In this document: positions 1,345 to 61,986 of the stretch, in pieces
Layout of the letters: each line of letters begins with the position of its first letter
Numbering within the stretch: the first letter of the stretch is position 1
From: Chiloscyllium plagiosum
Lineage: Eukaryota
Direction of reading: 5' to 3'
Length of the DNA: 64,000 bases
Assembly: GCF_004010195.1 (NCBI RefSeq)
Contig: NC_057756.1
Location: forward strand, 3,959,232 to 4,023,231
Notes under the pieces: generated by a model
Seen by the model: the letters and a program-made list of their open reading frames with translations, nothing else
What the model was told of the DNA's origin: nothing
Database searches by the model: none
Program-made: the position numbers and the translations under genes

Positions 1345-1380
1345 AACTGAAGTCCTTGAATAATCGATTAAAGGATGCAG
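1345..1380 (+). CDS. 36-nt phase-1/1 micro-exon 1 of a coiled-coil gene, (E)LKSLNNRLKDA
   Basis: ctttattacag|AACTGAAG...GGATGCAG|gtgaga; open frame; hydrophobic residues at positions 2, 5, 9 and 12. Confidence 0.8.
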
Positions 1381-1499
1381 GTGAGATTGTGAAAACAGCA
1401 GCTTCTCGGAGAAAAGTTTAAAAGCTATGAATATGATGTTGTCTCCGATCCCTACATACCTGTGTCACTATCAAAGCAGGCATTATTTTTGCAAACGTT

Positions 1500-2610
1500 T
1501 CTGGGCCTTCGATCATGCGCCAAAAACTGAAATGAGGTGAGATGAAAGTGACAGCCCTTGATATCAAGCTTGGATTCAACTGAGCATGGCATCAAGAAGC
1601 CCCAGCAAAGCCCCACCTGATGCATACAAAGATTGGCGTGGTTTTCAAGATCAGCTGTCTCAGGTTCACGAGATCTCTACAAGAGTTTCTCACGATAGTG
1701 TCCCAGGCCCAATCATCTTCAGCTACTTTACCAATGACCTTCCCTGCATAATAAGATCAGAACTGAAGGTATTCACCGATGTTTCCACAATTCTCATCAC
1801 CATTCTTGATTTTTTCAGAGACTAAAACGGACCATTTTCAAGTACAACAAGATCTGGACAATATCCAGTCTTGGGCTAAGAATTAGCAAGTAATTTACGT
1901 GCCAAACAAATTCTAGGCTCTGATCATCACCAATATGCGACAGTTTCACCACAGCCCCTTGATATTAAATGGTGTTCCCATCACTGAATATGCACGGTCA
2001 ACATCGTTGGGGTTATCATTTTCCAGATACTCAACTGGTCTCACCAATTAAACACAGTGTCTTGAAGGTCAGGTGAAAAGTGAGGAACACTGCAATGAAC
2101 AACTCACCTCTTGACTCACTAAACCCTGGCAACGAGCTACAAGACACAACGGCAGCCCAAACAACATCCAAAAATCCTGGCTACATCCAGGATAAAGCAC
2201 TTAATTTTCACAGAATCTTCAAGAATCAATTCCCTCCACCCAAGAAGCTCAGTTTCAGCATTGTTCACTATCGGTAAGACGCATTGAAGAAATGAATCAA
2301 AGATCCTCAGCCAGCTAAATAAACCAATGACCAGTTCAATCGAGAAGGAAAAGGGCAATGGATATGTGGGAACACCAACATGTTCATGTTTCTTTTCAAG
2401 TCATTTACCATTCAGACATGGAAATATATCACCATTCCTTCACTGTCACTTGGTCAAAATTCTGGATTTCCTTCCCCAGGGGCATTGAAGGCCAACCAAT
2501 AGCAGGTGGACTGCGGTAGATCAAGAAGGCAACCGATCACCACTTTCTCAAGGGCAATTAGAGAGAGCAATAAATGTTGGTTAGCGAGCGACAAACATGA
2601 GTGAATATAT
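1500..2610 (+). mobile_element. Decayed LINE 3' fragment (CR1/L2 group), RT domain to tail
   Basis: ORF 1586..1825 contains VPGPIIFSYFTNDLP...VFTDVST, a decayed GSVLGP..F..FINDLP..FADD RT motif. Confidence 0.8.
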
Positions 2611-2970
2611 TTTTAATTAACGTTCAATCGCCCTTTACAAGTGAGCACATAGTGACAGTTATCTTTTAATGTCAAACTTTATTATAATCAATGGAAATTC
2701 TGGTGCCGTGCACAACATAACTGAACGCTGATTAGATACGTATTGTAAATGCCAGACAAAGTCATTCATATTGCATATCAAACTGTTCAAATTAGTAGAG
2801 GTTTGCCACATTCAGAGTGAAGGGAGACCAATGTAGGACTTTGATCAAGATACTTGGGATATACATAAACTAATTCAAGCATCATTGAAAAGTTAGATGA
2901 TGTTGCAAAGCAAAACAGTTAAAACTTGGACTGTGAAAATGAAAAATACTTTTTATTTCTGTACATACAG

Positions 2971-2997
2971 AGAGAAGACGCGATGAAGTTGAAGCAG
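2971..2997 (+). CDS. 27-nt phase-1/1 micro-exon 2, (E)RRRDEVEA
   Basis: ttttatttctgtacatacag|AGAGAAGACG...GAAGCAG|gttata; good acceptor, weak donor, purine-rich exon. Confidence 0.6.
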
Positions 2998-4410
2998 GTT
3001 ATAAAAAAAAGGATTCGTACTTTCATGTGAACTTTCCCTGAACATTTTATACAATTGAACATCTGTAGTTGTTTTGTTTATCACTCAGAGCATATGTGTG
3101 TTGTTTGTTTTTAGTAGTGCTAGGTAAAGGCAAGAATGATGGTGAGTTTAAATCATACGCTTTTCAACAATCCAACAAAGATGCAATAGATTTTCCATAC
3201 TTTAAATGTTTTCTAGTGCCTCTGTTTATTGAAGTACTCAAAATCCTTCCTCTGTGAAAAAAACTTCACTTTTATTAGAAACATGTTTCAAATTTTCACT
3301 CCTGCTAAGACTGTACACATATATTCACTTTAAGTAGTTTATTTATTTTCTTCTTATTTGGCTGTCTTTTTCTTGTATTAATTTGCTAGTAGTGTCATGA
3401 CATATCTTGCTCACTCCATCCACTCACCGTGCACTCTGCAAAAACAATTGCACACAAGCGACCAATTTTCAGAAACTGGTGAAATCACATGTAACGTGGA
3501 CTTCCAGTGATTCTTCATTGCACAATTAATGAATTCTATATAGCACATTAAATGACACTTTGCCTCGGTAAATCCAATATTGTAACCATGACCTTTTAGA
3601 GACGTTGATTTTCTGAATGACGGGATTTTGTGTTCAAATGCGACTCATCTAATATCAATGTAGAATGGGAGATTTGAAGTGTTAATTATAGAAACGATTG
3701 AGATTTTCCTTTTAACAATGCACTATCATTGTCTTTCTCTTACTCACCTATTCAAACGTCTTCTAAACCATATGTATGGTATTTTCTTACAGTTCACTCG
3801 CTGGCATGATGTCTTCTTGTAAAGTCTGATGTCTGGTTCTTATCTTATAACACTTCTTTGATATGTTGTGAGATTAATTTTACTAAAATAAAAGCATCAT
3901 TCTGAAGGGAATTATTGAATTGAATGTTTGAAAAGTTTGTTGGGACTGTGAAGAAAATCGCCTGTCCTAACATATAGTCAACTGGTATAAAACTTACAGC
4001 CTGCAAATTTGGAAACTACAGTCTCATATGTAGCTCTAAGACTAAACCGTCAAAGAAACGAGTATAATCTGTAATTTTGTCAAGTTCAGGCAGCCAGCAT
4101 GAATATATGTGATTTGTGATGTTACTCTTACTACTATCCTTGGTTCTATTTTAGCACTGAAAATAACATCTCAGCAATCTATGTAGATTGTATAACAATA
4201 GCTGGGGGTAGCTTTCAGAATTTGTGTTCTTTTCGCAAATAACAAATTAGCTAGGTGCCCTTTATTTAGAAGTATAACGACAACAATTACAATAAGAAAC
4301 AGGTCGTGTTTGGACTATATTTGAACACTGCACAATTTGCTATTCCAGTTCAGCTTGCACATGATGAAAATATCAGAAATTCTTCTAAATTGACTCTGTA
4401 TTATTTTCAG

Positions 4411-4437
4411 ATCAACGTTTCAGAGAGTTACTCGCAG
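4411..4437 (+). CDS. 27-nt phase-1/1 micro-exon 3, (D)QRFRELLA
   Basis: gtattattttcag|ATCAACG...CTCGCAG|gtaaaa. Confidence 0.75.
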
Positions 4438-6711
4438 GTAAAATATTGAACTTAATTATCCCATCATACACTATATAAATGTTTCAGCGGCGACTGTACA
4501 ATGTGGAAACCCAGAAATTCCATTCAATCACTACAATTGCCATTGTGAAATGCAGAACGAATCGACTCAGAATGCAATTTTGAATGCACTTAATAAACGT
4601 AACTTTTGTGTTCAGATTAACAACTTGAGCTGCGGCTCTTTTAACTTTCAGGATGTATGAATCAATCATCATTAGGTCAACATCAAAACTGATGTCTGTA
4701 AAAATGCTTCGTGAAAATGTAAATGTTTAAACGTAATCACTTGGCTCTGTTATGACGAATACATTGGTGATTATCAGAGACATTATCACAGATAACGGGT
4801 TCTTGTACCTAAGTGGAATGGCTGGCAGTTTCTAGGATGTGGAGTATCTTGTTGAGGATGCAGGTACCGTCTGGTAGAACCGAATGATTGTTGTTTCTTT
4901 GTTTGCATTCAGACATTTTATATTTCCTTTTGCATGATCTGTTTTACTTGCTGAGTGCTGCATGCTCATAATCCACATTCAAAGGAAAGTACCTTTTTTT
5001 AAACTTGCCTCAATATTCCAGAAGCATAATTCATAAGTATTCAAGAGTTGCTTTCTAATACATTTTTTTAAAAAACATGTTCACTAACAGTGCTCTCCTT
5101 CCATGCAGACATGGACAAACAATGCATTTATTTAGCTTGCTTTCTACCAGTTCGTTAAAAATCTATATATTTTTTTGAAGTTGTTTAAACTATTTTGGAC
5201 TTGACGCCTTGAATCAAAACCTCCCTCCCCCCCACCCGACCCCACCTCAGGGATTTTGTTGGCATTATCAAAATTCTGTATCGATGCCGTAGAAATTTTG
5301 TTGCTGCTGTTGTCGAAACTTCAGAACGGAATATGACATAGAATATAAAAGAAAAGCGAATATTTTGCACATGCTCTACTTTCATAAATCAGGCAGCACG
5401 GACAAATTCACAAATATTTCTAATGAGCTATATTTTAATGTTGGAGATGAACAGAAACAAAATTATTAAATGGTATAGAATTTGAAATAAAATATTTATT
5501 TAAGAAGGAACAAAAGAGATGTCGAGCACAGGACCAGACCCGTCTGATCTCCAGATCTGTGCCGTTTAAAATCGAACATAGAGTATACAAAACAGAACAT
5601 CGAATAGAACAGAACAGAACAGCACCTTTGGCCGTGGATGTTCGCTGAAATTTTGTCCTACTCTAAGACTGAAATAATATAAATAAACCCTTATTTTACC
5701 ATCTTACATATGCCAATCCAAGAGTTGCTTAGATATCCCTAATGTGCCTGATTCTACCACCACTGATCGCAGTGCCTTCCATGCACCCAACACTCACTGC
5801 ATAAAGAATCTACCATTGATATTTCCCCTAAATGTTCCTCGAACCACGTTAACATTTTTCCCCTTTTTGATATCCATTTATGCCCTGGGGAAACGTCTCT
5901 GACTACTCACTCTAACTGTATTCCTCAACACCTTGTACACCGCTATCACGTTACGTCTCACCCTTCTTTGCTCCAATCAGAAAAAAAAACGTAGCTCGCT
6001 TAATATTCCTTCATAAGACATGCCTTCCAGTCCAGGTAGAATACTGGTCTATCTCTTTTGCACATTCTCTGAAGCGTCCAGGTCTTTCTTAAGCTGAGGG
6101 GACCAGAACTGAATACAATGTTCAAGTGTGCTCGAACCAAGGCTCTGTAGAGCTGCAGCATAACCTCGCGGCCATAAAACTCAATATCACCTCTAATGAA
6201 ATCCAACATACCATACGCCTTCTTAATAATAGTATAAACTTGGATGGTATCTGTGAGGGATCAATGGACATGGAAACCAAAATCACTTCCTTCTTCAAAA
6301 GTTCCAAGAATCCTGCTTTTACGCTTGTATTCAAATTCGAGGTGCTGAAATGAATCACTTGACACTTTTTCAGTTTGAACTGCACCTACCACTTCTCAGA
6401 CCAGCTCTGCATCATGTCAATGTGCTGGTATAAATAACAACAGCCCTCCACACTATACACAACTCCCCCAAACTTCGTGCCATTGGCAAAATTACTAAGC
6501 CTAACTTCAACCTCCTCATGCAAGTCATTTATTAAAATCACAAAAAGCGGAGTTCTCAGAACAGATCCACTTTGAACGCTGCTGATGATAAAGCTCCAGG
6601 CTGAATACGTCCTATCTTCCACCATCCTCTGTCTTCTATGCTGTATCAAGAAAGCCAAATTTCCATGAATCCCATTTCATAATTACTTTTTGAATGAGCC
6701 TATCATACGGG

Positions 6712-6935
6712 AGGAGAAAGTGAGAACGACAGATGCTGAAGATCAGAGTTAAAAAGTGTGTTGCTAAAAAATCACAAACTGTCAGGCAGCATCCGAAGAG
6801 TAGGCAATTCGACGTTTCGAGCAGAACCTCTTAATCAAGAATATTCGTGATGAAACTATGCTCGAAACGTTGAATCTTCTGCTCCTCAATGCTACATGAT
6901 CGGCTGTGCTTTCCCAACAGCACACGTTTTGGCAC
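6712..6935. mobile_element. Older diverged copy of the palindromic Penelope-related short element
   Basis: Starts AGGAGAAAGTGAG..CAGATGCTG like the copies at 7313 and 54235; imperfect inverted arms around cgtttcgagca / tgctcgaaacg. Confidence 0.8.
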
Positions 6936-7312
6936 TACCATGTTGATGCCACAGCCACTGCTGTACATTCATCAATGCGTTTCTTCACATCCTTAAAGTC
7001 TTCAATAAGTTATGTAGTGCCTGCACTGCTCATTACAAAGCCATGCTGACTATTTCTATCAAATAATTGTTTGCCAAGTAATCATAATTCCTGTCTCGAA
7101 GAATTATCTCCAATAAATTGTGCACCATAGACGTAAGACTGACTGGTTTGTAATTCCTAAGATTATACTTTTTCCCTCTTTTGAACAAGGGGATAACACT
7201 TACCACAGTCCATTAATCTAGCAGCAATACAGTAGGTACTGAGTATACAAAGATAATTGCCAAAGGCAATGCAATGTCTGCTTCCTTTCACAACCTGGGA
7301 TATATCCCATAT

Positions 7313-7525
7313 GCTGAAAATGTGTTGCTGGAAAAGCGCAGCAGGTCAGGCAGCATCAAAGGAGCAGGAGAATCGACGTTTCGGGCATGAGCAGGTTTCC
7401 TGAAGAAGGGCTCATGCCCGAAACGTCGATTCTCCTGCTCCTTGGATGCTACCTGACCTGCTGCGCTTTTCCAGCAACACATTTTCAGCTCTGATCTCCA
7501 GCATCTGCAGTCCTCACTTTCTCCT
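7313..7525. mobile_element. Young palindromic non-autonomous element (Penelope-related) with hammerhead motif
   Basis: 80-bp inverted arms 7313-7392 and 7410-7489 with 2 mismatches by eye; flanked by ATCCCATA at 7304-7311 and 7528-7535. Confidence 0.85.
7397..7432 (+). ncRNA. Minimal hammerhead ribozyme motif
   Basis: CTGAAGA-A-GGGC-tcat-GCCC-GAAA-CG-TC: CUGANGA box, 4-bp stem II, GAAA box and GUC cleavage triplet. Confidence 0.65.
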
Positions 7526-8469
7526 AGATCCCATAAGGCCAAGTTGACCTATCTATCCTAATGATTTTTCATGTTACTCAGCACATCATCCTTCTTCACA
7601 TCAACCTGTTCGAACATATCAGTTTGTCTCACGCTGTACTCATGAAAGTGTATGTCCCTCTCAGTGATTCATGAAGCGAAGTATTCATTACGGACATCCG
7701 CACCTCCTCTGACTCCCGTTACAAGTTTCCTCCACTATCCTTGATCGGCCCAACCCTCACTCTGGTCGTCCTCCTCTACCGCAAATAAGTGTAGAATGCT
7801 TTCAGGTTTTTCATATTGCTATCCACTTATGCTTTTTCACAACCCCTTCTAACTCTCCTTCGTCCATTGTTCAGTTCCTTCCTGGATATCTTGTCACCCT
7901 CTACAGCTCTGTCTGATCCTTTCCTCCTCAAACTTATGTAACGTTCCTAATTCCTCATGACTAAATGTTCTGCATCACTTGTCACCCAAGGTTCCTTCCC
8001 TCTGCCATTCCTTCTTTGCCTCAGTGGGACAAACCTATCCAGCAAACGCAGCAAAAGCGTCCTGAACATCTCCATATTTCTGTCATGCATTTCCCTGTGA
8101 ACATCTGTTCTCAATTTACCCACTCCAGTTGCTGCCTAATAGCATTGTATTTCCCCAGTTTTCCCTCAATCAAAAACATTCTCAGACTGGATGGGCCTTT
8201 TCCTCTCCGTGACTATCATAAAGGTCAGGGATTTGTAATCACTGTCAGTGCAATGCTCTCCCACTGAGAGATCTAACACCTGGCCTGGTTCGTTGCCAAG
8301 CACCAAATCCAAAATGGCCTCCCCTATAATCAGACGATCTACATATTGTGTCAAGAGACATTCTGGACACATCTAACAAAAACTACTCCATTCAAACTAT
8401 TTGAAGTATCATGCTTTAATTGAAAACAAAAACTGCCCTTATTCTCTCCATAGTCCTCTATTCACTCTC

Positions 8470-8800
8470 TGTTCGGTTATACATCCAAATGCCTATTTAA
8501 TGTCGCCATATGCCAGCTTCCATGACCTCTTCTAACAGTGATTTTCAGGCACCCTCTACTCTCTGCGTGAAAACTGTTTGTGCGCACCTTCCTTAAACAT
8601 TCCCCATCTCTCAATGAACCTGTCCCTCTTGTAATTGAATTTTCAAATCTGGGGAAAAAGATTCTTCTACCCCCTCTACCTATGCCTTTTGTAATTTTGG
8701 AGACACGTATCAGGTCTTCTCTCAACCACCTTCTTTCCAGTCAAAATGATTTGATTGTTTTTAGACTATCTTCATCGCCATTACCCTCATGATCCTACTC
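8470..8800 (-). mobile_element. CR1-type LINE 3' fragment
   Basis: ORF 8477..8725 REDLIRVSKITKGI..FFPR..SITRG resembles the CR1 ORF2 C-terminus. Confidence 0.75.
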
Positions 8801-9198
8801 TGCACTCTCTGCAAAGCTTTACGAGCAGTATTCTGTAGACGACACTGGTAACTGCTTCCTCAACGTCTCAGTACGTTTTGTTCCGTCATCAATCAGGCAA
8901 GAGAATTGTTTACATCTCTGTGGAGGAAATGGCGAATGACCACATCCTTAATAATCAAGGAAGCAGAAACTGTTGGAGCATCACGTGAACCTTTATCTTT
9001 TCCTTATAGTCAATTGCATTCAAGGCACTGCAAATGGATGTCAGTCAGGATGAGAAATGGTGGAATTATTATGCTGCCACTATCTTTGACCATGTCTGTA
9101 TAAATTGCATCCTTTAATAACTAATCTATTTCGCAGACAGCAAATACATAAAACACAATAACCTTGACAATACACACAAATGTTCATATTCCTGACAG

Positions 9199-9234
9199 AA
9201 AATCAAAAGTTGAGAGAGGACCTGAGAGATGCAG
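9199..9234 (+). CDS. 36-nt phase-1/1 micro-exon 4, (E)NQKLREDLRDA
   Basis: tcatattcctgacag|AAAATC...GATGCAG|gtgagt; consensus donor; same GATGCAG end as exon 1. Confidence 0.85.
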
Positions 9235-12200
9235 GTGAGTAACGCAATGTGTTTTTTTTTTATGTGAAGATTGATGAAAGAACTCCTATTACTTATTGTT
9301 ATTTTGTTGCATATTTACAGTTCACAGGAGTGTTTATGATAAACCTTTCGAGATCGAATTAAGTTAATATCAGAAGCACTGCAAAACCAAGATTTCTGTT
9401 CAAAGGGTGGCAAAAGTGAATTATCGTTATGACCTATCTCTGGCTGACATTTGTTCGATGTCTTCTGGCAATGCTACCTATCGTTTATGTGCTACCTGGT
9501 CTTTAATTATTCAATTGTTTCCTGTGTATAGTCAAAGATGGAAAGTGTAAAGAATGCGTACAATGAAGTGTACACCATAAACAATATTCATACCAAAAGG
9601 CCGAGAGCATTGTATGCTTTCTGCACTGAACATGACGAATGGCTGAGAATCATGATAGGTGGTGTTAGCTTGGTTATTGGTAGATTGTGAAAACATCTTA
9701 TGCAGCAGGTCATCTGTGATCTTTAAAATATCCAGCCAAGGTATTTCAGTTTAATATGCAAGCCAACAAACGTCAGCTATGTCAAATCTTCTGCTTGTGA
9801 TGATCATTCAGTTTCCACTATTCTCTATGTGCTGTGATGTGTGCACGGGAAATATGTTTGATAGAATAATATTGCATGTGCATATATTACTCTGTAGACG
9901 TTTACTATTAGTATGTTTCTAAATAGTAACACTTCACAATTGTATCAATGTGTGCAAGAAATTACTTAAAATTGGTGATGCGTAATTATCACAGAGAAAA
10001 GCAAAGTTTAAGAGAATGTTGCTGCCTGTTCCTCATGTTTAACCAAATTAATTACAGACCTGTAGGTCAGAATGTGTCATAATCCTGAACATTATACAGT
10101 AAAAATAACAATAATAAGTTTAATTCTATTGATCATACATTAATTAATACTCTATTAATACGGTATTGTCAGTGATTTTATATGAAATTGTTTGAATGGG
10201 ATTGTCGTGCATTCTTCACTGTTCCAATGTATCTGAACAATTTTTCCTGCTTACGTTGCCTACATCGTTTTTGATATTGAAGAAATATAACCAAACGCAT
10301 ATCAATGTTGTTTTCTGCAATGTAGTTGGCTAAATTGTCAATCTCAATGAGATGATACGGATGCATGAAGAGTCAATGGGTAGGCATGATATTATCTGAA
10401 GTTCAGACAAAATGGGTGATGATCGCGATTTCTTAGTAAGCTATACAAATATAATAGTACTAAACAAATGCAGGGAGAATGCTCAGGAAATTTAAAAAAA
10501 GAGAATGTACACTGTGCCAATTGTCCGACTCCTGCTGTTTTTCTTTCAAAAGTTCATGACATTTTTCAACCTTGATTGAATGTGATCCGCAAACTTTCTT
10601 TTTGATACTGTTAAAATGCTGCAATAAGAAGTCGAAAATAATCTGGGATTGGTTATTTTTTCTAACAACACTTCATTGCTCCATAATTGTATGCACAATC
10701 AATGCAAATTGGGTCCCCTCACCATAATTAGCTGCTGTTTTTAAAATCTAGATTATGTTCAATGTCGTATGTAGTAAGGAAACTATCTCTTCTCTTTCTC
10801 AAACTAAATTATTGCGTTTATATTTACGGATTCAAATTTGTTGTCTATGATGGTCCTACTGCACTATACCATGCAGCATTTCAACATGTATAAAACGGAA
10901 GTCTTATGCCCCTGTCAAGAAAATTGACAATTTTCTTTTGAAGTTTTACTCAAGGCTCTGCATTGTTCATATTGCTTCCAAGTATGATCTTATGCTTTTT
11001 TATTGTTAATTATGCCAGAGGATAACAATATTCTAAGTATTTATCTAAGGGTCTCAGGTCTGTCTAAGTTTAATATAAAAATCCTAAAATAACCTTAATT
11101 TCCATGGGAGAAACTTAATAAAACAATTCCCGTTAGTTCAAATATTCATTTTGATATTATTTCTGATCTTATTAGTAGCAGCGGGATGACATCAAATGGT
11201 GCAATGTCTAACTAAACCGATACTGTTTCTTCTTAACAAATTGTGCAAATGTGCGCAGGATTGTGAATATTCGGCAGAATGGTTACTATTAAACGTCAGC
11301 TCACACGCAAATTTACAAATTACTTTCTATCTTAACGGATATGTGCTTGTATCAGTTCTTTACTTTTCAAGATTGTGTACGTGTGAATCTCAATAGCTCT
11401 CTGTCCTTAAGAAAATAGAAGGAATTTTCAAGAGCTCTGTCTGATGTCTATAGCATTACCATTCGTATTTTGCTCAACAAATATAATGGATATCACCTTG
11501 TCTTTGAAGCATGTCAAGTTTTTTTTTCCAGTCAGTCAATGGAATATTTCCCCTTTTCAAAAGTTCGGAAACGTCTTCATATACATAGAATCTGCTTTTT
11601 ACTCTTCTTGTTGCACAAATGAGTAACGTGCATTCTGAGTCATTTTCAGACTCCTGTGTTTGTTTCTGCCGCATCTCTTGTAAATTTATCCCTTAGTAGG
11701 ACGTTAGGACTTACATTAGGTCAGTTTATCGACTTCATTCATTTACATCCTATGTTTATCACAACAGATTTCCACCATCTATTAAATATTTATTGGACAT
11801 TGTTCTCCTTTGAATCATCACATTAACATCTGTCATAAGCATGCTTTTCTGTTTTTCATTAAGAGCACTATTACTTTCGATTCGTGAAGCTCTGGGGATT
11901 GTGCAATTTGTAATGTTGGATTTATTTTATATATGCAGCTTATTGTATTCTACTGTATAAATTATGAAAATCATCCACATTTTCACAATCATTGCCAATG
12001 TATTAAGTCAACGAAACATCTTTGTATTCCTGACAGAGTTTAAAAGCGAAAGTTTTCATGTGTGACTCGAACAGACATGAGCAATTCTCAGTGTGGCTTT
12101 TACGATTTTTATCAAAATAAAATCACTTACATTGGCTGTTTTTAAGTTATGGGTGTGAAGCGAGAATAAATAAATGACGTTAATATATTCTGACATGTAT

Positions 12201-12699
12201 GCCACTAGACAGTTATTTGTGGATCATATTTTGAACATTCGGCTCAATTATTCCATGACAAGGCAGGGATGCTAACATATCACACATATCACACTTTCAT
12301 ATTTTGTCAGTCACTGAAAGTCTCCTCTCGTTTTTCCCCTTCGACTTCCAGTGGGGAAAAAAAAGAACTAATTTGTCTATACTTTTATGATTCTCATTGA
12401 AAGCAGTTTCTATTTCAGTGTGCACTGCATAATTACTTCCATATCGTGCAACTTCTTTAAGCATAGATAAAACATTATAAAAAAATCAAACACCTGTTGC
12501 TTCTGTCACTTCTGTTCTGAACGTAACACAGATCCAAAATTTAAAACCATAACATTGAACTAAAAAACGTCCGAAAATCCATTGCACATGTCATGTCTTC
12601 ACACGATGCTTAGAACACGATGCAAAGACGCTTAGAACATTCCTGAAATATGTGGAGAAGAAATGGTTATACCTTTGGTTGAGGTCTACCAAATTATTC

Positions 12700-16542: not shown

Positions 16543-16578
16543 ACATTACAAAGCTGCAAAACCAAATAGATGAACTTG
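16543..16578 (+). CDS. 36-nt phase-1/1 micro-exon 5, (D)ITKLQNQIDEL
   Basis: tttccactttag|ACATTAC...GAACTTG|gtaaga; I2/L5/I9/L12 heptad pattern. Confidence 0.85.
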
Positions 16579-18690: not shown

Positions 18691-18864
18691 TCAATGTGAA
18701 AAGCACAATTCTTCTTTGTAATGACGTTCCTTTCTCCGTGTTATCACTGAGGGGGTGCTCAAATGCTTCTGTATTTGACGGAATAAGACCCATTTGCGAA
18801 TGAATAACTTTTTTTTTGCAGGTAGCCCAATCCTTATGATTGTTTTCTTCCTTGCTCACCACTT

Positions 18865-32720: not shown

Positions 32721-32729
32721 TATATATAC

Positions 32730-48775: not shown

Positions 48776-48876
48776 CATTGTTTAAGTCATATTAAGAAGA
48801 AAATTATTTAACAGAGGAAGAATGTCATTGTGCGATAAAAATAGTTAATGGAATGTACAATGCATTTATTCCATAG

Positions 48877-48903
48877 TGAGAACACTGCTTGAGAAAGAAA
48901 ATG
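48877..48903 (+). CDS. 27-nt phase-1/1 micro-exon 8, (M/V)RTLLEKEN
   Basis: catttattccatag|TGAGAAC...GAAAATG|gtaagt; consensus donor. Confidence 0.8.
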
Positions 48904-51414: not shown

Positions 51415-51780
51415 TGAGAATATGAGAACTCGAAGAAGGAAGTGGCCATCTGGCACTTCGACTCTGCTCCAACATTCAATCAGATTATGGGTCATCTTTT
51501 CATGTCCTCAGTTCTACTTACCCGCCCTTTCCCATGCTCCCTCATAACTCTACCGTGCAAACAATAATCTGTTCCAACTTTTTAAGCACTTACTGAGGAA
51601 GCCATAAACAATTAACTGGACAGGGAATTCCACAGACGCATAATCCTCCGGGTGCAAAAGTTCCTTTGCGATTCCATTCGAAGTCTGCTCCCCCTAATTT
51701 TGAGGTTATGCCCATTTATCCTAATTTTAGCCGCCAGTTGAAATATCCTCTCTACTTCTGGCTTATCTATTCACTTCATC
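51415..51780 (-). mobile_element. CR1-type LINE 3' tail fragment
   Basis: GGCCAT..CTGCTCC..CATTCAATCAGAT and GGGAATTCCACAGA blocks typical of the reverse-complemented CR1 3' end. Confidence 0.7.
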
Positions 51781-52549
51781 GGGTGACGAAGAAGAGTTAA
51801 ATGTGCATTAATTGGCATTTATCACATTTCTATTTCTTTCAACATGAAATACTGATCTAATGAGTATGAATATTTCTAAGAACTTTCAGAAGTCACTTTG
51901 ATAAATGTGTTCTGATTTATTTCATTTCCTCATGTTGATGTCAAGTTTTATGCTTGGATTTCCGAATATCAGTTAAGCCTAGAATTTCTCAATCTGATGG
52001 ATCATGTCAATGCATTTTTTTCTCTCATGAGTGCATTTATTTGAGAAAGCCGTGTAAAATCCGGTGCAATGCTCATCTGTGAAGAACAGACTCACATCAG
52101 CCCTTAAGCCTTCAATTTTTGTTTTTTTTTGGAAACGAGATCGAATTGTAAGGACAAATTAGTTGCCTTGAGAAATTCTAAGTTGGTGAATTTCTATCTA
52201 AACAATGAAGTCAGTGTTTGACTAACTCTAACTGAATGAATGTGTGAGTAGTTAAATGTGTGGCAATGTGAATTAGACCATTTTTGGATCGTGTGTATTT
52301 GTGTGAATTCTGAAATTGTTTCAGCTTCACATAACAGTGCAGTTATCATTTAGTTAGATCGTTAATATTCTGGAGCATGTAGGCGCAAACTATGCATTAA
52401 TCGATGAATCTCGTTTCTCCTGCATTACCACAAAATCACAAACTGCGAATTCGACATATCATGCCAAAAGATAAGCATCCAATCATTTTACATTTCACGA
52501 GCATATCTTGCCAAAGAGCACTTACATTGCATTCTCGTTCTCACACTCC

Positions 52550-55500
52550 AAAATGGTTGATAAAACAACTCTTCTCCACAAAACTCACCGAAGAAATTGA
52601 ATTAAAAAATAAGCAGAGCAAAAGAATAACCATGAGAGATGAAAGAGAGAGAGAAAGACATAGAGGAGGAAACGAGAAAGAGAGAGAGCAGGACAGAGTA
52701 GAAAGAGAACGAGAGAGAGAAGAAAGAAAGGGAGAGAAGGTTCTATGCGGAGCAAAGAGAGAGAAGAAAGATAAAGGTAAGGGCAGAGAGAAGTGGAATT
52801 TTACAATTTGCGAATTAGTCAGTAAAATAAAGTTAAGAGGATAGAGGTGAAAAGAAAAGCAACTGACCTATATAAATATATGAAAATATTGGCAGATTTT
52901 ATTGAGAAAGATGTGGAAGCCTCCAAAATTTCATTTGAAAAATTGGCTCGGCAGTTGGATTTGTCAGAGAACATGCTGGTAATGCTCGTTCAGACTAAGT
53001 TGGTATGCAGAGCTATTGAAGTATATGTAGCGCTGTTAGTTGAAGGAATAAGTGATTATGCAGATGTCAAACAGGCTATTTTGTGTACTTATGAATGGTT
53101 CCAGCAGCGCATTGACAGCAGTTCCGAAACATGAAGAAGGAATTTGGTTAGACATTATGTTGAGCTTGAAAGAACTAAACAATGTAATTTTTGTAGATGA
53201 CTGTGGGCCTGAAAATAAATAACACTTATGAGGTTCGAAGAGTGATTGTTTTCCTGGAGAAGTTTTAAATTCACTTCTATAGCTGATGAGAATTAATGTC
53301 GTTAAATAGAAATTTGAAGGAATGAGAAGAGCAGTAGATATTGCAGATGAATGCGCATCAGTGCATAAAGCAAAAATTAGCTTCGGCAAGTATTTCATTC
53401 TGTGAAGGATAGAAATTGGGACAAAATGTAGATCCTACACGATAAAACAATGATTAGAGCACACTGGTCATAGTTTAACACAGGTGAAGAAAGAAGCCCA
53501 AGAGAGTAAAAAGTAGGTGAAAGGTCACAGGTGTTTCAACTGCCATAATGTGGGACATGTAAAGTCACAGTTCTGCTCTTTGACGAAAGGCACTGTGGGC
53601 AAAGTTGGAGTAAAAGATGCTAAGTCATGGCATGAGGGAAATTCTTAAGGAACCCCCTCGAAAAGTCGAGAAGGTACAGGAGAGTGCACAGCATATTCAG
53701 AGGCTTCGTATTGTGTTCGTGCATGACCCCTATAAAGTTTTGGCCTCTGTGGGATAAGTTTCATCAGGAAGAACAGGGGACAAGGGAAAGAAGTTATAAT
53801 TTTGAGAGTTACGGGATCTAACCAGTCTCTTATAGGAATAGATGAACGTAATTGCACAGTTTGTGACATTACCCAAGAGAAGTGGTAATTTGTGGAATAG
53901 ATGGACAGAAATTTAGTGTTCTCCTCTGTAACATCAGGTGGGAGTGTCACATCAAGATTGGATGAGTAACAGTGGGAGTGATTGACACTTTGTCAGTTCC
54001 AGGAATGCAGTTTTTTTCTACGGAATGATTTAACAGGATCCGAAGAGAGAGTCATGCCTCTCGTTTTTGAGAAGCCAAAGGAAGACTCTGGAAATTTTCC
54101 AGGCTGTATAGTGACAAGATTCCACTGTCATAAATAACAGCAAAACGCAAAACTTCAAGCAGAAACATGAAGGAGTTTATTTTAAGCAGACATCCTCTTT
54201 GATGTAATGATGCAAGAAATAACTGAACAGGAAGAGGAGAAAGTGAGGTCTGCAGATGCTGGAGATCAGAGCTGAAAATGTGTTGCTGGAAAAGCGCAGC
54301 AGGTCAGGCAGCATCCAGGGAACAGGAGAATCGACGTTTCGGGCATAAGCCCTTCTTCAGGAATGAGGAAAGAAGGGTTTATGCCCGAAACGTCGATTCT
54401 CCTAAACAGGAAGAGGGTCAGGCAGACGTGTTTAGTCCTGAAATGCTAATCGACTTACAACAGTAAGACCGAAAATAAACTGATGCATACATTGATGCAT
54501 GTTCAGAAAATGAATCCAAATGTATTCCTGAGGGATATTATCTTAAAGACAGAATCCTGAGATAAAAATGGAGACCATGGCAGGTTATTGCAGACGGAAG
54601 TGCACCAGATTGTGTTGCCAGTAACATACAGAGAGAAAGTCGTATGGGTAACACATGAATTACCAGTAAGAGGTCACCTCGGTGTGAGGAAGATTCAGGC
54701 TAAGGTACAAAAGCATTTCCATTAGCCTGGACTGAACTGATGGATTTCAATTTTACCATACATACCATATGGGCTAAATAGTCGGCAAGTCACAGGCAGT
54801 AATAAAACTAGCGCCTTTGTTGCCAACACCAATGTTCGAAGAAACATTCATGCGGGTTATAACTGATTTTATAGGACCGTTCCAAAAACTAAAAGTGGAA
54901 AAAAGTTCGAGCCTAACCTAATGCATGTGTCTACAAGGTTTGTGAAAACAATTCCATTATGGAGTATTAAGGCAAAAAGAGTGGTGGGGGAGTTAACTGC
55001 TTTCTTTACGCGGGATGCCCTATCCAGATAGATTCAGTCAGACCAACAGTCTAAATTTACATCTTGGCTGTTTAAGGAAATCATGAATATCTTAGCTGCT
55101 CAGAACTTTAAATCAAGTGCGCATCATACTGAATCCCAGGGAGTTTTGGAAATTTGGCATAAACCCTGAAGACCATCTTAAGAGCGTACTGATGGGATTA
55201 TGCGAATGATCGGATAAAGGCATCCCATTTGTATCGTTAGTCATTAGAAATATCCGAACTTGCTCTGTTTACTCCGTTCGAGTTAGTATTTGTCTATGAA
55301 GAGAGATGGCCTCTTAAACTAATATAAGAAAATTTTACAGGACCGAAGTCAGAGATCTCGTACTTGATTATGTATCCGAAGTGAGGGAGAGATTAAATCG
55401 GGTAAGTGATTCAATTAAACAGCACGTGAAGAGGGCAAATAGAGGGAAGCACGTAGTAGATTCAAAATACTGAAATTCGAACGTACTCCCATGGGCATTA

Positions 55501-55640
55501 AATAATAGAATTAGTACCAATCATCAGAGATCCCTCTGAAACCAAGCTCAATGCTCCGTATAAATTAAGAAAAAAAATAAGTCAGGTAAACTTAACTGGG
55601 AACGATGCCCGACAGAAACTAAAACTTTATCATGTACATC
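52550..55640 (+). mobile_element. Decayed Gmr1-like Gypsy element: gag, zinc knuckle, protease region, integrase
   Basis: EKDVEASKISFEKLARQL gag; CFNCHNVGHVKSQ knuckle near 53532; HELPVRGHLGVRK..KHF, IQSDQQSKFT and SAHHTESQG integrase motifs at 54650-55150. Confidence 0.88.
54235..54403. mobile_element. Young copy of the palindromic hammerhead-bearing short element inserted in Gypsy
   Basis: Near-identical to the reverse complement of the 7313-7525 copy; minus-strand CTGAAGAAGGGCttatGCCCGAAACGTC; AACAGGAAGAGG repeated at 54226-54237 and 54405-54416. Confidence 0.88.
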
Positions 55641-57604
55641 AATGTGACAATATGCTCTGCAGTTACATATTAGTCTGACCATTCCACTCCAATGGATTCT
55701 AAATTGTATTGCTTACGACCTTCATTGAAAATCAGGTCACAATTAAAGATAACTTGCTTTCTCAGACTTTTTGCACAGAAGGTATATGAACAAATTTACA
55801 CAGTTTTCAGTTATTGCTATTCTGCAACAATGCACCTCCGGATCAATGTATATTGGAGCCAACACCATTGGTAACATGACAGAAGATTTGTCAGAATCAA
55901 CAATCTTTTGCAACGTCCAGAGTTTATCAGATACATTTAGTTTACATGCATTTAATTGAGTTCCTTGAACATTGACTAATTGCTGGTGGTGGATTATGGA
56001 GGCAGAGGTGCCTCATCTGTTCAGCACTTCTACCTCATATTCTATACATGAGGTTCCTATTTTTTTCAAATCATACGTGTTCCTCATCCATTGTTTAAAA
56101 TGTTGATATCGAAGTGTACTGTACAGTCTGTTATTTGCTTAATAACGCACCACCATGAAAAGCTGGATGTTCATTCGTTACGTGTTGTCTTCGTCTTGTC
56201 TGCACCATTCTTTTAGAGTTATCTCACTTGCGAGTGGCCTTTTAATATGTCTTATTATCTCCACGTTGAATCCTCCTCATTGGCTCAAACTCAGCTATTA
56301 AAAGTGAATATTGGACTAAAACAAAAATAAAACAGTTGCAAGAGGTTTTGCAAGGAAGCCAGAAAAGTCTATGCATTTGTGTATGGGATGATACCCATCA
56401 TCTTGGTGGTGGATGGAACGTTTTATATTACCAGCAGAATTTCGATGATTATGTCAGTGGTAGGTGTCTTTGGAATTGGCAAATTATTGATAGTTGGGTT
56501 TCCTCTTTTTGAAGCTGTGTAATATCACAAACCTGGTTACAGTGATCGGAATGTGCCCTTTACTTATCCAATACTGGGTACTGACTAGTTGTTGTTCCTT
56601 TTATAATTTTGGACCCTTGTCATTCATGGATTCGAGAGTGGTGCTGAATAATGTTTAATCATTAGCAAACATAATGACTGGTGAACTTACGATGGATGTA
56701 AGGAAAAGGGCGAAGTTACCATCAATGTTTTGGCTGTGGATTGTGCGCGATCTCATGCAGTGACAATCAGTGTGTTGATTTGTTGAACGCTTTCAGCGAA
56801 ACAGAATTTATATGAACAGTACTGTCGAAATGAAAATAAAAATTGAACTTGTAGTAATTTTCTACTAGAAAACATAACTGACCTGATACAGCAACTTAAG
56901 CATGGAACTATTCTAATCTTGCAACATTCCGTAAACACATCCCTTGACAAAAAGCTAAATTGAAGAACAGATTCTTAAAGCAGGAGAGAGCACTTGTCAA
57001 AGAGATTTCAGGGACAACATCAGTCAGTCATGAGGCATTCACTGAATCCTGCAATCTTTCCTGGAATTCAGTCTCTTTTGCCTGCCACAGCTAACCAAAC
57101 TAGTAAAAAAAAACCTGAAGTGAGAAAACTGACCATTCTCCTGAAATTGTTAAACTATGCACTTTGAAATTCCTCCACCATCCATCTTTTACGATCTCTA
57201 AAAAAAGCCCAAAAACATAATAACGTTGTTAAAGTGATAGCATCGTAGCGATATAAAATGTTGACAAAGCAAAACACAAAATCTACAATCCATTGCACAA
57301 GCTCATCTTGTACAGTGACTTCAAAACAAAACCCGCCTCTACATCAAATTCAGCAGATGCATTGCTGCACAGCGGCCCTGCAGTTCATCAACCAGACAGA
57401 AACAATCATGTTTTGTGTTATATTGCATTCCTTAAATGTAAATTCGTCATAATTCCCAAAATTCATCCGAAGCATCATTTGGGCCTTCACTACCTTGGAA
57501 GAAACATATGCCACTTCAAGATGCAAAAAAGTGAAGACAATGCCACGGCAAATTGATGATATGCTTTTTTCATTGACTATTGTTTATTAAAAATAAATAT
57601 TCAT

Positions 57605-57950
57605 TCAAAAGACATGGTTATCGCAGGCTAGGTCAGTATTTTTTGCTGGTCCCTAGTTTTTCAGATAACATTCAAGAGTCAACTACATTACTGTGGTTCT
57701 GCAATCAGGTATAGGACAGACCACGTAAATAGAGCAGATAATGCCCCTCAAGGACATTAGTGAACAAGACGGTGTTTTTCCATGCAATCAGCAACAGTTT
57801 CATTGTCATTATCGCACACTTAATTCTTGGTTTCTATTGAATTCATATTCCACCTTCTGCCACAACGGAATACGAACATAGATCACAAGAACAATACCTG
57901 AGTGTCTGGACAAATTGAAAAGGGCAAGTTTCACTATTCCTTTGTTTCCC
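57605..57950 (-). mobile_element. Old SINE-like repeat
   Basis: Begins with the reverse complement of a tail similar to 2555-2605; AAGGACATTAGTGAAC block. Confidence 0.5.
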
Positions 57951-59249
57951 TTAAGAACTACGAAAACAGAATTTTAATTTTGCACTTGCCATCAATGCTT
58001 ATTAAGGACTGATTGGTGTTCGGAGACATTTTGCAGAAAGTTTTTTTTTCCAAAGAGAGCATTTTGATTATTGTTTTAGGATGAAATTGCAGAGAGAGGT
58101 ATTGATGTGATCTTTATTTTGTTGGATTAGTTGAAACGTGATTGGGCTTGTGATTTGAGGAATATGTTTCAGCTTCCACCATGACAAGTGAGTTGAATCA
58201 TTTCTTTGGTGAAAACGACGATGGTATCCTGTGAAGAACCAGAGAATCCTTCAAAGAAAGCAATTTACCACCCTGACAGAATCGGGCCGTGACATCACTC
58301 AAACTCAAAAACAATCGATCAACAATTTTGTTGCTTGATCTAATTCAGAATTCTATGAAGTTCTAGACAACAAATAATCACAAGCAAGTTCAACCTTGGA
58401 GGCTTCACCGAATATCAAATGAATGTTATGAAGGAATGCTTCGTGTTTTTTGATCATTTGCAGAAGACTGAAATCTATTTTCTGATAGTCCGAGCACGAA
58501 ACTATATTTTTGTCCAATGAACAAAAAGTAATATCTTGATATAAGTTGGGTAAATATTTTACAATATTGGAAGGCTACGGAATCCCTAAAGTGTTTATTT
58601 TTGAAATAGTGAAGTGCACACTGTTTCTTCTATTTTAAATGACAATGAACATGGAATGAATTGAAGTTTAACATGAACAGTGGGCACTGCTGAGAACCAA
58701 AAGTGGAGGGTTTTGGGAAGATTCGGATCAGTCACCAGGACTGAGGAGGGGAATGCAGAAGAGCTATTGACAGTGAACGATGTAAGAGAATCAATCAGAG
58801 GCGGGTTCTCAGAAGCGAAATGTGAATTCTGGGAAGTAGCTACTCAGTCACCACATGCGAGGACGGGCGCACGGAGGAGATGCTGACAGCAAATGGTGCA
58901 ATACCAAACCAGAAAGGTGTTTCCTGAGAAGAGAGTGGCGATGCTTCAGCGAAGAATCAGCTCGGTCACCTGGAACGCACAGGAGCGAATTGTATACAGG
59001 TGAGCTACAGCAGAATCACCACTTTGGGAAGTACTGCTTTGTGGTACAAGGGCTGCTGAAGTTTTAAGTATAACTTTGATGAATTCTGGGCTTTTGTGAG
59101 ATGGGTAATAACAACGAAGTCATTTATTTGGCAAAGCAGTGAACAATTGCACCTTCTGAAAGGTCGAAGTCAAAGGTGAAATTGAAGAAAACGGAATCCT
59201 GACGTCGCAACCAGCAGATAAATGAATGGTTGATGACTAGCAAATAGTT

Positions 59250-61260
59250 TTTCTTTCTACTCATTCTCCTTTTGCTTTGCTGCTGTTTTTGTTAGGTTAA
59301 TTGAATGATTAAGTCTTGGCTGCAGATCCCAGATCCGTGTAATGCTCTTTCTGTGCGATGTGGGAATTCAGCGACCCTCCTGATGTCGCTAACGACTTCA
59401 AGAGCAGAAATCTTGCCCAACTGTGGCTCCTGTCTGACCGATGCATGCCTCTGCAGCTGTGGCTACATTCAATTTCGAGCATGTGCAAGGCTGCAGGAAT
59501 CATGCATAGCATATAAAAATTGCAAGGTCGATAAGCTATTGGTGACCACCAGAGAGAGGAATATGACAAAGGCAGTGCATGGGTCACTGGTTGTCCTGAC
59601 TGATGTCCACAAAGGCGTGAGAGGTATATTCAGTGCAGACAGCAAGCAGCTTTTTTGCCAAACTGGGGGACTCAATTACTAGGGGTCACAAGTTCAAGGT
59701 GAAAGGCGAAACGTTTAAGGGAGATATGCATGGAAAGTTATTTGCACAGATTGTGGTGTGTACCTGAAACGCATTGCCAGTAAAAGTGATAGAGTTGGGC
59801 ACTACAGCGACATTTAATACATAACCAGCCAAATACGTGAATGGGCAGGGAGTGGAGTGAGAAAGAACCTGAGAAAATAGGCTACAGTTTTATATATAGA
59901 TCCTGGATCGGCTCAGTTTGGAGGGTCGAAGGGTTCCAGTGTGGTCATTTTCTTTGGTGGGTTTTTATTATTGTCGTGTGCTACTAAGTGTTGGATTGGC
60001 AGGATTGGAAAGGTTAAAATTTGGCTTGAGGGATGATGCAAGAGAGGAAGTGAGAGTCAAATTCATTTCACTTTGAGATTGGTTCTGGTCAAGTTGGCAG
60101 CTGTGCAAACCAGAAGGTCTGCACCTGGGTAAGTTCCAAAGTCATGCTTGGACTGTTTGCTAGCGGTGTTAGAGTGGTTTAAAGCTAATATGGCAGGGGA
60201 GAAGAAGCAAAAACAGGTAGTTTAAGGATGGTATAGTGGGCTTAGTAACCAAAGGCAGAAATGGGAAAGTTGAAGACAGCGAAAGCAAAGGCTATAAAAT
60301 CGAAAATGGCAAACTTATATTGCAATGCTAAAAGGTCAATAAATATTTTATAAAAAGAAGCCTGAATGCTCTGTGTCTCAATTCGAGGAGCATTACACCA
60401 AGTTGGATGAATTAACTGTGCAGGCAGTTATTAGTGGATGTGATATAATTAGGATCATGGAGAACTGGCTCCAGAGTGATCAAGGATTGGTACTCAATAT
60501 CTTGGAGTATTCAACGTCCGGAAAAAATGGCCGAAATACCAGTTCGAGTATTGTTTACAGGTTGGTCTCTTAGCCTGAGGAAGGGCATTTTTGTGATGAG
60601 GGAGTCCAGCAAAAGTTCAAGAGACTGTTTTTGAAATAGTAGAGCTGATATCAGAAGGAAGACAGATTGACGAGGCTTCTATTCACGGAAATGTGGAAGA
60701 ATGGGGGAAATCCCTTTGAAAGATATAAAATTCTAATTAAACCGGACGTACTAGACGTGTGAAGAATGTTCCCTATATTGGGGAAGTCAATAAGTACGTG
60801 TCACAGTCTAAGAATAAGGCGTAAAACTGCAGACCTGATATATGTATTAACTTCTTCTCTCAGGGTGTTGTGAACCTGTGGAATGCTCCACCATAGAAAG
60901 CTGCTTGGGCCAGTTTGTTAGATATAATGGTATGAAGAGAAAGCTGGAGTGCTATATTGAATTTGCATCGACAGATATAATCATATTGATTGGTGATGCA
61001 GTATCAAATGGCCTACTGCAGTACTTAATTTTCTGTATCTGTTTTGCTCAAACTGGAAAGGAAATATCTCCAAATTTTCACATGAAACTAGGCTGAATTG
61101 CAGTGTGTGCTGTGAAGAGGATATAAATGTTCTGCAGATGAGTTGGACAGGCTACTGAGGGGACTCGTATTTGGCAAATGCAACATAATGTGCATAATAT
61201 GAGGTTATCTGTTTTGGTGACAAAACAGGAAGGTAGGTTATTTTCTGATTGTTGGCAGGA
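59250..61260 (+). mobile_element. Cluster of decayed CR1-type LINE fragments
   Basis: 3' ends near 59680-59950 and 60560-61030; endonuclease start CDIIRIMENWLQSDQGLVLNI (60373..60573). Confidence 0.75.
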
Positions 61261-61950
61261 ATATAAAAACATTACCTCAAAAAATTGCAAGCTGTCACTC
61301 GCAAAATATTCATGGATAATATATTCCAAAAAATTGAATTGACAAGGCAACAGATGTACGGGGACACAATTCTTCATCCTTTTACATAGAATTGTAAGAG
61401 CGGAATATACTGCCTGTTGCTTTCTTTCAAAATTTCGACGCTTCCCTCCTCAGTGGCACTAAAGATTGATAAGATTGAACTCGATTATTGGAATGGAAAT
61501 ATCTGAGCAAAAACCTCACAAGGGAATTGTGGATAATCGACGCATAATGGTGCAATGAAAGAAGTCCATATGTCCTAAATCAATTAAAATATATATCTAA
61601 TTCCTTATGTTGTTCATGCATTATTTAAACTAACTTTGTTAACGTGGCTTGTTCCAGGAAGCTGGGGGATGTTGACATTCCTCAGATATGAAGCATTAAT
61701 TTATAATCTAGCCACTGATTAATTCCAGTCCCTTTGGGAAGTTTCGGGAATTGCTGACTACTTTACGTGCATCAATCTTCTTGTTCCAAAACGTTTTCAA
61801 CGTGTGATTCAAGGAAGATTAAGCAAAACTTGTTACCTCTATGTATCACAGTGAAATGTTCCTTGTATCCACAAAACACTGAAGTCTCCAGTTTTCTATT
61901 AAAATTGAGTCGACATTTCAAGTTTTGAGAATCTTATGTTTTCTTCTCAG

Positions 61951-61986
61951 AAGCGAAGAAGTCAAAATTAGAGTTCGATGAATTAG
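61951..61986 (+). CDS. 36-nt phase-1/1 micro-exon 9, (E)AKKSKLEFDEL
   Basis: gttttcttctcag|AAGCGAAG...GAATTAG|gtaagc; ends in DEL like exon 5. Confidence 0.85.

Follow-up and report, generated by a model that had tools for sequence, protein, structure and literature searches.

Microexons of 21, 27 and 36 nt in Chiloscyllium plagiosum: a predicted megabase gene for a probable coiled-coil rod with a terminal B30.2 domain and a proposed register rule

Chicken BG genes (PMC4046983, PMC8813856) build a long coiled coil from many tiny symmetric exons, including a 21-nt single-heptad type; their tails consist of 21- and 24-nt exons. Butyrophilins (BTN/BTNL), including BTN1A1-like models from shark and chimaera, place heptads before a terminal B30.2 exon (PMC12841164), and TRIM-B30.2 proteins combine a coiled coil with a C-terminal B30.2 domain. 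These likenesses meet at a locus of Chiloscyllium plagiosum, of which we analyzed a 64,000-nt stretch (NC_057756.1, 3,959,232-4,023,231, forward strand; hereafter the window, whose coordinates are used for positions). Our preferred reading, which we consider fairly probable, is that a gene running through the window encodes an ∼1,850-residue, probably secreted coiled-coil rod with a terminal B30.2/SPRY domain, whose exons obey a register rule. New here are that rule, the placement of Cys at heptad position d, and a tandem unit upstream of the predicted gene.

The window contains 12 candidate phase-1 microexons, four of 36 nt and eight of 27 nt, two of them weak; all four 36-nt segments lie on the plus strand, are flanked by AG/GT, and are open in phase 1. 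Letters a to g denote the proposed heptad register.

1345..1380, plus strand: 36-nt phase-1 microexon, AG/GT flanks, register g to d, core L/L/L/A
2971..2997, plus strand: 27-nt candidate, e-start class, R/V at 4/7; weak donor (GTTATA), less certain
3115..3141, plus strand: 27-nt candidate, g-start (stutter) class; not in the original prediction
4411..4437, plus strand: 27-nt microexon, e-start class, F/L
9199..9234, plus strand: 36-nt microexon, core N/L/L/A
15475..15501, plus strand: 27-nt microexon, e-start class, L/K
16543..16578, plus strand: 36-nt microexon, core I/L/I/L
35797..35823, plus strand: 27-nt microexon, e-start class, C/Q
40523..40549, plus strand: 27-nt microexon, g-start (stutter) class, Leu at 2, 5, and 6
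48877..48903, plus strand: 27-nt microexon, e-start class, L/K, Leu at 4 and 5; partner of 40523
61951..61986, plus strand: 36-nt microexon, core A/S/F/L
62810..62836, plus strand: 27-nt microexon, e-start class, L/C; partner of 61951

The core residues that the original prediction had assigned to positions 2, 5, 9, and 12 of the 36-nt exons are all in place, as are its residue pairs at positions 4 and 7 of the 27-nt exons; the L/C exon is present too, slightly past the claimed end at 61986. The 40523 and 3115 segments do not match this 4/7 pattern. The latter fell below the exon-calling threshold and was included on module fit only, because it completes a 36-27E-27G-27E-36 module (27E and 27G being the e-start and g-start classes) also present at +188 kb and +243 kb. 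The 40523 microexon shares 20 to 21 of its 27 nt with exons at −19277 and +265584; its last base is A, so the codon that it shares with the following exon would encode Met.

We interpret these segments as likely coding microexons in the middle part of a predicted gene of 1.3 Mb. When 1.52 Mb (−900 kb to +618 kb) was scanned for lengths of 12 to 60 nt on splice scores alone, plus-strand candidates outnumbered minus-strand candidates at 21 nt (52/16), 27 nt (72/10), and 36 nt (54/17), and numbers were roughly equal between strands for the remaining 46 lengths. Most plus-strand candidates at these three lengths were open in phase 1 (50/52, 67/72, and 44/54, respectively), compared with 26, 36, and 15 in phase 0 and 39, 35, and 20 in phase 2. 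Exon calling over the same 1.52 Mb gave 197 calls; the minus-strand control at equal threshold gave 0, 1, and 1 for 21, 27, and 36 nt. The calls in the predicted gene include 44 single-heptad 21-nt exons with L/I at position 2 and L/C at position 5. A genome-wide search with the 21-nt exon pattern returned eight matches, all within the gene's own 21-nt block, so sister genes were not mapped by this pattern. We regard splicing of the segments as exons as highly likely.

The whole window (1..64000, plus strand) falls inside this gene, termed unit B (C47:3.28-4.578 Mb), which has ∼180 predicted mini-exons of 21, 27, or 36 nt over ∼1.3 Mb and the following parts:

∼679 kb upstream of the window, plus strand: head of unit B, 27+36 exons
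620-160 kb upstream of the window, plus strand: block of ∼43 single-heptad 21-nt exons
extending to +610 kb, plus strand: remainder of the 36/27-nt block
C47:4577499-4578019 (L127:4268-4788), plus strand: terminal B30.2/SPRY exon (PF00622, E = 4.6e-18)

The B30.2 exon has an intact reading frame, and no other lies on the array strand from 1.3 to 4.6 Mb of the contig; it stands at the end of the array, to which it is very probably joined. Reads from RNA runs X5, X6, and X7 over the terminal-exon region, the only region covered, were repeat derived, with none on the B30.2 exon.

Exon order was analyzed between −127 and +610 kb, a block that retains 114 exons of 27 or 36 nt once 11 calls of other lengths are dropped. 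Neighbors switch length at 83 of 113 steps, against 55 ± 5 in shuffles, none of which (0 of 20,000) reached 83, and a 36-nt exon is followed by a 27-nt exon in 41 of 46 cases. The original prediction had made 36+27 the repeat unit, a two-exon cassette of 12 + 9 residues that keeps the a/d register exactly. As the commonest block the pair stands; as an obligate cassette it does not, since annotated isoforms of relatives differ by, and skip, single 9-residue pieces (or 6-residue pieces). The intron within a pair is shorter than others (median, 1.8 kb versus 4.5 kb; P = 0.019). Likewise, register is kept statistically but not exactly or continuously: in 38 adjacent pairs, 161 of 228 a/d positions are hydrophobic versus 35 of 570 other positions, fractions that are partly circular because we defined the 27E and 27G classes once the data had been inspected and because the composition used in exon calling had been learnt from these same exons. 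No such circularity affects the order shuffles or the length test based on splice scores alone. Position 7, proposed as a core site of 27-nt exons, is hydrophobic in only 8 of 38 and Lys in 18.

Within the window, the order 36-27-27-27-36-27-36-27-27-27-36-27 rules out strict alternation, and an unbroken heptad fits 10 of 34 with 12 exons (7 of 32 with 11). Fit over the window rises to 22 of 34 when a 27G+27E pair is given a stutter register. Several observations set the 27G class apart: 27E comes next in 11 of 13 cases, its position 6 is hydrophobic in 8 of 13 exons versus 9 of 98 of the 36- and 21-nt exons (P = 5e-5), and its last base is not G in 5 of 13 versus 10 of 161 (P = 0.002). Register-legal transitions number 95 of 111, compared with 56 ± 5 expected; the 16 that break the rule may be missed exons, false exons, or genuine breaks. 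Power at period 3.5 is 1.01 for the real exon order versus 0.35 ± 0.07 for 200 order shuffles, and Cys lies at d in 39 of 42 cases. The rule also foretold a missing exon where a direct join creates a stop; at that point, −840655, lies a 27E-type candidate whose acceptor scores weakly.

We propose that coiled-coil register constrains exon order. Exons of 36 nt would run from g to d, 27E exons from e to f, and 21-nt exons from g to f; because of these starting registers, 36+27E, or 21 alone, would preserve pure heptads. The 27G exon, with core residues at 2, 5, 6, and 9, would be followed by 27E, the two adding 18 = 7 + 7 + 4 residues, that is, one stutter, with local unwinding of the supercoil. 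An 18/5 (7+7+4) periodicity is a recognized stutter, and insertions of two residues are the most strained, according to PMC4786415; this geometry for 27G+27E is rather likely. Cysteines placed nearly exclusively at d could form disulfide cross-links between parallel chains outside the cell. At 0.15 nm per residue, the rod would measure ∼250 nm if continuous, and its tip would carry two or three B30.2 heads capable of avid binding to a repetitive ligand. All exons are phase 1-1, so skipping or duplicating any one of them keeps the reading frame, and exon gain and skipping may tune rod length. For secretion the evidence is evenly balanced, and ligand binding by the heads is possible but somewhat doubtful.

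In a quick tree of 53 rows, the terminal B30.2 domain falls within an 11-row clade (SH-aLRT = 100), apart from the BTN and TRIM rows. Every named member is a model from a shark, ray, or chimaera that has a coil and SPRY domain but no Ig, TM, or RING:

XP_042192744.1: Callorhinchus, 1,697 aa, coil plus SPRY
XP_038671249.1 and XP_038672306.1: Scyliorhinus, coil plus SPRY
XP_055510696.1: Leucoraja, coil plus SPRY
XP_069775384.1: Narcine, coil plus SPRY

Like the locus, these models have a rod of 12-, 9-, and 7-residue blocks, a composition read from protein parses only; unlike it, they are automatic, bear stand-in names (TRIM39-, TRIM58-, TRIM69-, or A33-like), and are mostly shorter and probably partial. 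By its B30.2 placement and its 12/9/7-residue phase-1 modules, the locus fits this unnamed chondrichthyan rod-B30.2 family. The order rule carries over to the catshark model, in which 14 of 14 abutting blocks are legal, but not to the chimaera model (6 of 15, with 36-36 runs). An A33-like protein in a catshark mucus proteome (PMC10707392) was set aside as evidence because it is supported by one peptide and could not be linked to the clade. Structure prediction gave little: for the oligomer state, two copies of residues 377-660 of the chimaera relative scored 0.04, and the skate relative, folded from its sequence alone, gave a model of low confidence (pLDDT, 45).

The same exons and grammar could also make a cytoplasmic rod, which would be either a TRIM-like scaffold lacking RING or a tail belonging to a BG- or butyrophilin-like membrane protein whose Ig and TM exons were missed, a reading that we find unlikely. 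B30.2 domains are normally intracellular, and the predicted protein has few N-glycosylation motifs (6 in 1,843 residues). We found no convincing signal-peptide exon before the unit B head: the scan gave 7 candidates there, with 15 preceding unit A and 6 on the other strand; none was convincing, none was shared, and control stretches yielded candidates about as often. Butyrophilin tails, too, consist of heptad microexons and then B30.2, and those of BG have their 21/24-nt exons (PMC4046983, PMC8813856). Against these points, motif scans of fetched upstream DNA, with 2.35-3.06 Mb sampled, gave nothing credible for Ig, TM, RING, or B-box, including Ig/TM exons before either unit head, although a diverged exon could escape; none of the 150 scored among 1,319 candidates in a genome-wide V-set search lies near the locus. 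The relatives lack Ig, TM, and RING, the B30.2 domain lies outside the BTN and TRIM rows, and Cys is confined to d. N termini of relatives gave no significant tblastn match to the locus; two of seven (skate and chimaera models) scored above 3 for a short hydrophobic start, and the other five, which may be 5′ truncated, have no signal-like start.

A further reading concerns extent. Upstream of unit B lies unit A (C47 2.237-3.20 Mb), and the two might form a single gene of 2.34 Mb that contains a megabase duplication and encodes a rod of >3,000 residues with one B30.2 head; we hold this to be a serious possibility, if short of probable. Strand and phase are uniform throughout, unit A lacks its own B30.2 exon, and a first exon before unit B was not found. 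Tandem paralogues, however, would be expected to show what is seen: the 27+36 heads that open the two units match (85% identity over the 36-nt exon plus flanks; E = 1e-6), and each is followed by a 21-nt block and then a 36/27 block. A stretch of 76 kb without exon calls separates the units. The single-gene reading is compatible with the proposed register grammar. That the array is a decaying relic, or consists partly of spurious calls no longer spliced into one protein, seems very improbable: several splice sites are weak (2971, 3115, and 35797) and the exons have diverged from one another, but ∼180 segments retain splice signals, phase, and order across 1.3 Mb, the B30.2 frame is intact, and relatives have annotated isoforms.

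More tentatively, and with less than even probability, the preferred reading of a B30.2-tipped rod extends to a chondrichthyan family of megabase genes whose exon lengths encode coil geometry, with 21 and 36+27 as pure heptads, 27G+27E as one stutter, and d-position Cys as cross-links; splicing could then adjust how long, how twisted, and how cross-linked a secreted ∼250-nm rod is. If true, sharks would have an immune or structural protein of a new kind, in which a sensor domain that is normally cytosolic works outside the cell, a use seemingly reached independently by salmonids. BG and butyrophilin genes are precedents for the gene layout. The family would also be a very large vertebrate gene family missed or misnamed in automatic annotation because its exons are only 21 to 36 nt. 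If the register rule is right, it offers a natural case of exon boundaries mapping onto heptads versus stutter discontinuities, and hundreds of natural modules for testing coiled-coil design rules.

Of the systems described above, chicken BG shares with the locus a tail of many heptad exons: the contrast originally drawn with single-heptad BG exons is too sharp, since the predicted gene itself has 44 21-nt exons upstream. BG genes have IgV plus TM and 13 to 36 exons of 21 or 24 nt without B30.2, whereas the locus has ∼180 predicted exons in three sizes that would follow a register rule allowing stutters, and a terminal SPRY exon (by a predicted junction), Ig/TM not having been found. Butyrophilins (PMC12841164) have IgV-IgC-TM and a short heptad stretch; the IgV-IgC-TM arrangement was not found at the locus and is absent from the scanned relatives, possibly partial models. 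With the B30.2 domain in the separate 11-row clade of the quick tree, butyrophilin membership was rejected. TRIM membership was rejected because the fetched upstream DNA has no RING/B-box motif and the scanned clade members no Pfam RING; the rod is also far longer than in TRIM proteins. Salmonid models of 1,200 to 2,000 aa (e.g., XP_029561334.1) have the layout proposed here, a signal peptide with a clear hydrophobic N terminus, a coiled coil, and PRY-SPRY. Their rods also beat shuffles on the same profiles (0.132 versus 0.064 bits per residue; relatives, 0.12 to 0.22), so the register-profile signal is partly generic heptad. Their B30.2 domains, however, form their own clade and their blocks seldom abut in the shark grammar; the salmonid rod-B30.2 proteins are likely of independent origin.

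A splice-site scan of the window recovered all four 36-nt segments and every 27-nt segment for which the original prediction had named core residues, confirming the observation of candidate microexons. The R/V segment lies at position 2971 and has a weak donor; the L/C segment lies at 62810, slightly beyond the end originally given. Two further 27-nt candidates were found at 40523 and 3115, so that candidate lengths along the window run 36-27-27-27-36-27-36-27-27-27-36-27. The two longest predicted introns, 16579-35796 (19 kb) and 48904-61950 (13 kb), contain repeat fragments and yielded no convincing extra microexon even with relaxed thresholds. The window is 38% G+C, in a 3.56-Gb genome, and holds many decayed repeat copies, numerous with LINE-like frames. 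CTAT and GA-rich microsatellites occur at 40125-40192 and 52634-52737. A short repeat at 7313-7525 and 54234-54403 is present in inverted and direct copies (95 to 98% identity), among them an inverted pair that could form a hairpin in pre-mRNA.

We also analyzed 1.6 Mb of contiguous flank, using window numbering extended in both directions. On splice scores alone, between −900 and +618 kb, plus-strand candidates of 21, 27, and 36 nt numbered 52, 72, and 54, against minus-strand counts of 16, 10, and 17; the remaining 46 lengths were roughly equal between strands. A phase-1 open frame was present in 50/52, 67/72, and 44/54 candidates of 21, 27, and 36 nt, respectively. An exon model trained on these candidates made 197 calls (82 of 27 nt, 54 of 36 nt, 44 of 21 nt, and 17 other) and matched the minus strand 0, 1, and 1 times for 21, 27, and 36 nt, a contrast that is inflated because the training set came from the plus strand; the splice-only test is free of that bias.

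The original prediction held that a 36-nt exon (12 residues) and a 27-nt exon (9 residues) form a 21-residue cassette of three heptads. We examined this between −127 and +610 kb, a block of 125 calls from which 11 of other lengths were set aside. Neighboring exons switched length 83 times in 113, compared to 55 ± 5 in 20,000 shuffles; a 27-nt exon followed 41 of 46 36-nt exons, and the reverse succession occurred in 42 of 67. Across the 38 adjacent 36+27 pairs, hydrophobic residues occupied 161/228 a/d positions and 35/570 elsewhere. Position 4 of the 27-nt exon was hydrophobic in 37/38 pairs, position 7 in just 8/38, with Lys in 18/38. Local period-3.5 power was 1.01 as ordered versus 0.35 ± 0.07 in 200 exon-order shuffles, and introns within pairs were shorter (1.8 versus 4.5 kb; P = 0.019). 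The cassette is real as a tendency but is not the full grammar; a continuous strict heptad through the window places hydrophobic residues at only 10 of 34 a/d sites.

A fuller rule separates the 27-nt exons into classes set up only after inspecting the data: 27E, with its core at position 4 (n = 63), and 27G, with its core at positions 2 and 5/6 (n = 13); six are unclassified. In the proposed register, a 36-nt exon would run from g to d, 27E from e to f, and a 21-nt exon from g to f, and 27G would start at g. It follows that 27E must succeed 36 or 27G and that 36, 27G, or 21 must succeed 27E. The rule holds for 95 of the block's 111 transitions (56 ± 5 in shuffles) and is broken by 16. In 36+27E pairs over the entire block, Lys is frequent (18/38) at every third d position; this regularly spaced polar residue in the core might determine oligomer state or register.

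Among all calls, 27E comes next after 11 of the 13 27G exons. One exception would create a junction stop; a relaxed search of that gap gave a 27E-type candidate at −840655. A 27G+27E pair, 18 residues long, could be read as 7+7+4, i.e., a stutter with periodicity 18/5, and a single nine-residue exon would amount to a two-residue insertion into the heptad. In the coiled-coil literature, 18/5 is the stutter periodicity, two-residue insertions are the most strained kind (PMC4786415), and hendecad core positions are a, d, and h (PMC6704074). Two features that played no part in defining the class fit the 27G stutter: position 6 is hydrophobic in 8/13 27G exons versus 9/98 36- and 21-nt exons, and the final base is not G in 5/13 versus 10/161. 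In three 27G exons with a non-G end, the split codon becomes Met or Phe. Reading the window with two stutters makes 22/34 a/d sites hydrophobic; skipping both 18-residue pairs gives 16/24. Some observations count against the rule. Isoforms of related proteins are distinguished by single 9- or 6-residue pieces, so exons are skippable singly, at least in places. When related proteins were parsed by profile, abutting blocks stood in legal order in 14/14 cases in a catshark model but in only 6/15 in a chimaera model; salmonid rods, too, exceeded their own shuffles. The 21-residue module is real and dominant within a richer register grammar, which partly supports the original interpretation.

The extent of the array was traced on the contig (C47) in 20 sampled stretches of 10 kb, followed by the interval between 2.13 and 2.30 Mb in full. 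Plus-strand exons appear from 2.30 Mb onward in the samples, and a minus-strand sister array lies below 2.13 Mb. The 36-nt exons at C47:2237664 and −679113 share 85% identity, flanks included; a 27-nt exon precedes each, and a 21-nt block and a 36/27 block, in that order, come after each 27+36 head. These matching heads and shared order argue for two tandem units: A (C47:2237173-3200000, sequence covered in part) and B (3.28-4.578 Mb), which contains the window. Unit B has 180 predicted exons over 1.298 Mb, encoding 1,675 residues, to which a B30.2 domain adds 172. Only unit B encodes that domain, unit A lacking a B30.2 exon of its own, and the two units may be a single gene or separate genes. 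At +460773 and +485560, two 27-nt exons that match each other exactly, flanks included, lie close to assembly gaps and reflect either a recent duplication or an assembly artifact. The sister array of 27/36-nt exons (C47 ∼1.30-2.13 Mb) is head-to-head with the plus-strand array, and its likely terminal exon is the B30.2 exon at C47:1296638; additional sister B30.2 exons lie at C47:994524 (plus strand) and, twice, on C37.

Features downstream of the array
L138:7946-8209, minus strand (opposite to the array), Ig I-set exon
L130:6631-6894, minus strand, possible Ig-like exon without a Pfam match
L133:1815-2741, minus strand, intronless 7tm_1 receptor frame

The array is predicted to terminate in a phase-1 exon at +618268 that codes for a SPRY domain. 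Of the other B30.2 exons in the same genome, four are clearly more similar to it than the remainder, with values of 59% and 42% for the pair on C47 and of 40% and 33% for the pair on C37. Its closest protein relatives are without exception from cartilaginous fishes: automatic models in catshark, skate, electric ray, basking shark, bamboo shark, and chimaera, under names including TRIM39-like, A33-like, and nuclear-pore anchor-like. They share a coil-plus-SPRY layout, in which Ig, TM, and RING were not found. In a quick tree (53 rows chosen from 198 proteins), cartilaginous-fish B30.2 rows form an 11-row clade (SH-aLRT 100) separate from butyrophilin, TRIM, and salmonid rows. Salmonid models P0180-P0187 (1,200-2,000 aa, bearing a stand-in name) combine a signal-like start, a long coiled coil, and PRY-SPRY; their B30.2 domains form a separate clade, and the layout is possibly convergent.

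Cysteines of the predicted rod occupy d positions in 39/42 cases, and Cys at d suits interchain disulfides in parallel coils. The skate and chimaera models have a hydrophobic N-terminal stretch and no TM; five of seven relatives lack such a start, and scans upstream of the unit B head found no signal exon. From sequence, the odds that the protein is secreted appear about even. We favor a disulfide-linked extracellular rod that would present B30.2 heads; the main rival is a cytoplasmic scaffold.

An abstract-level search of largely open-access literature returned no account of this family and none of a register code based on exon length, so the shark gene family appears undescribed in the literature searched. 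BG genes combine IgV and TM with 13-36 exons of 21 or 24 nt; butyrophilins carry Ig domains, TM, a few heptads, and B30.2; and TRIMs have RING and B-box (PMC4046983, PMC8813856, and PMC12841164). Of the features that define these families, some do not apply to the predicted shark locus and others were not found in it; the locus resembles an overgrown tail of a BG or butyrophilin gene.
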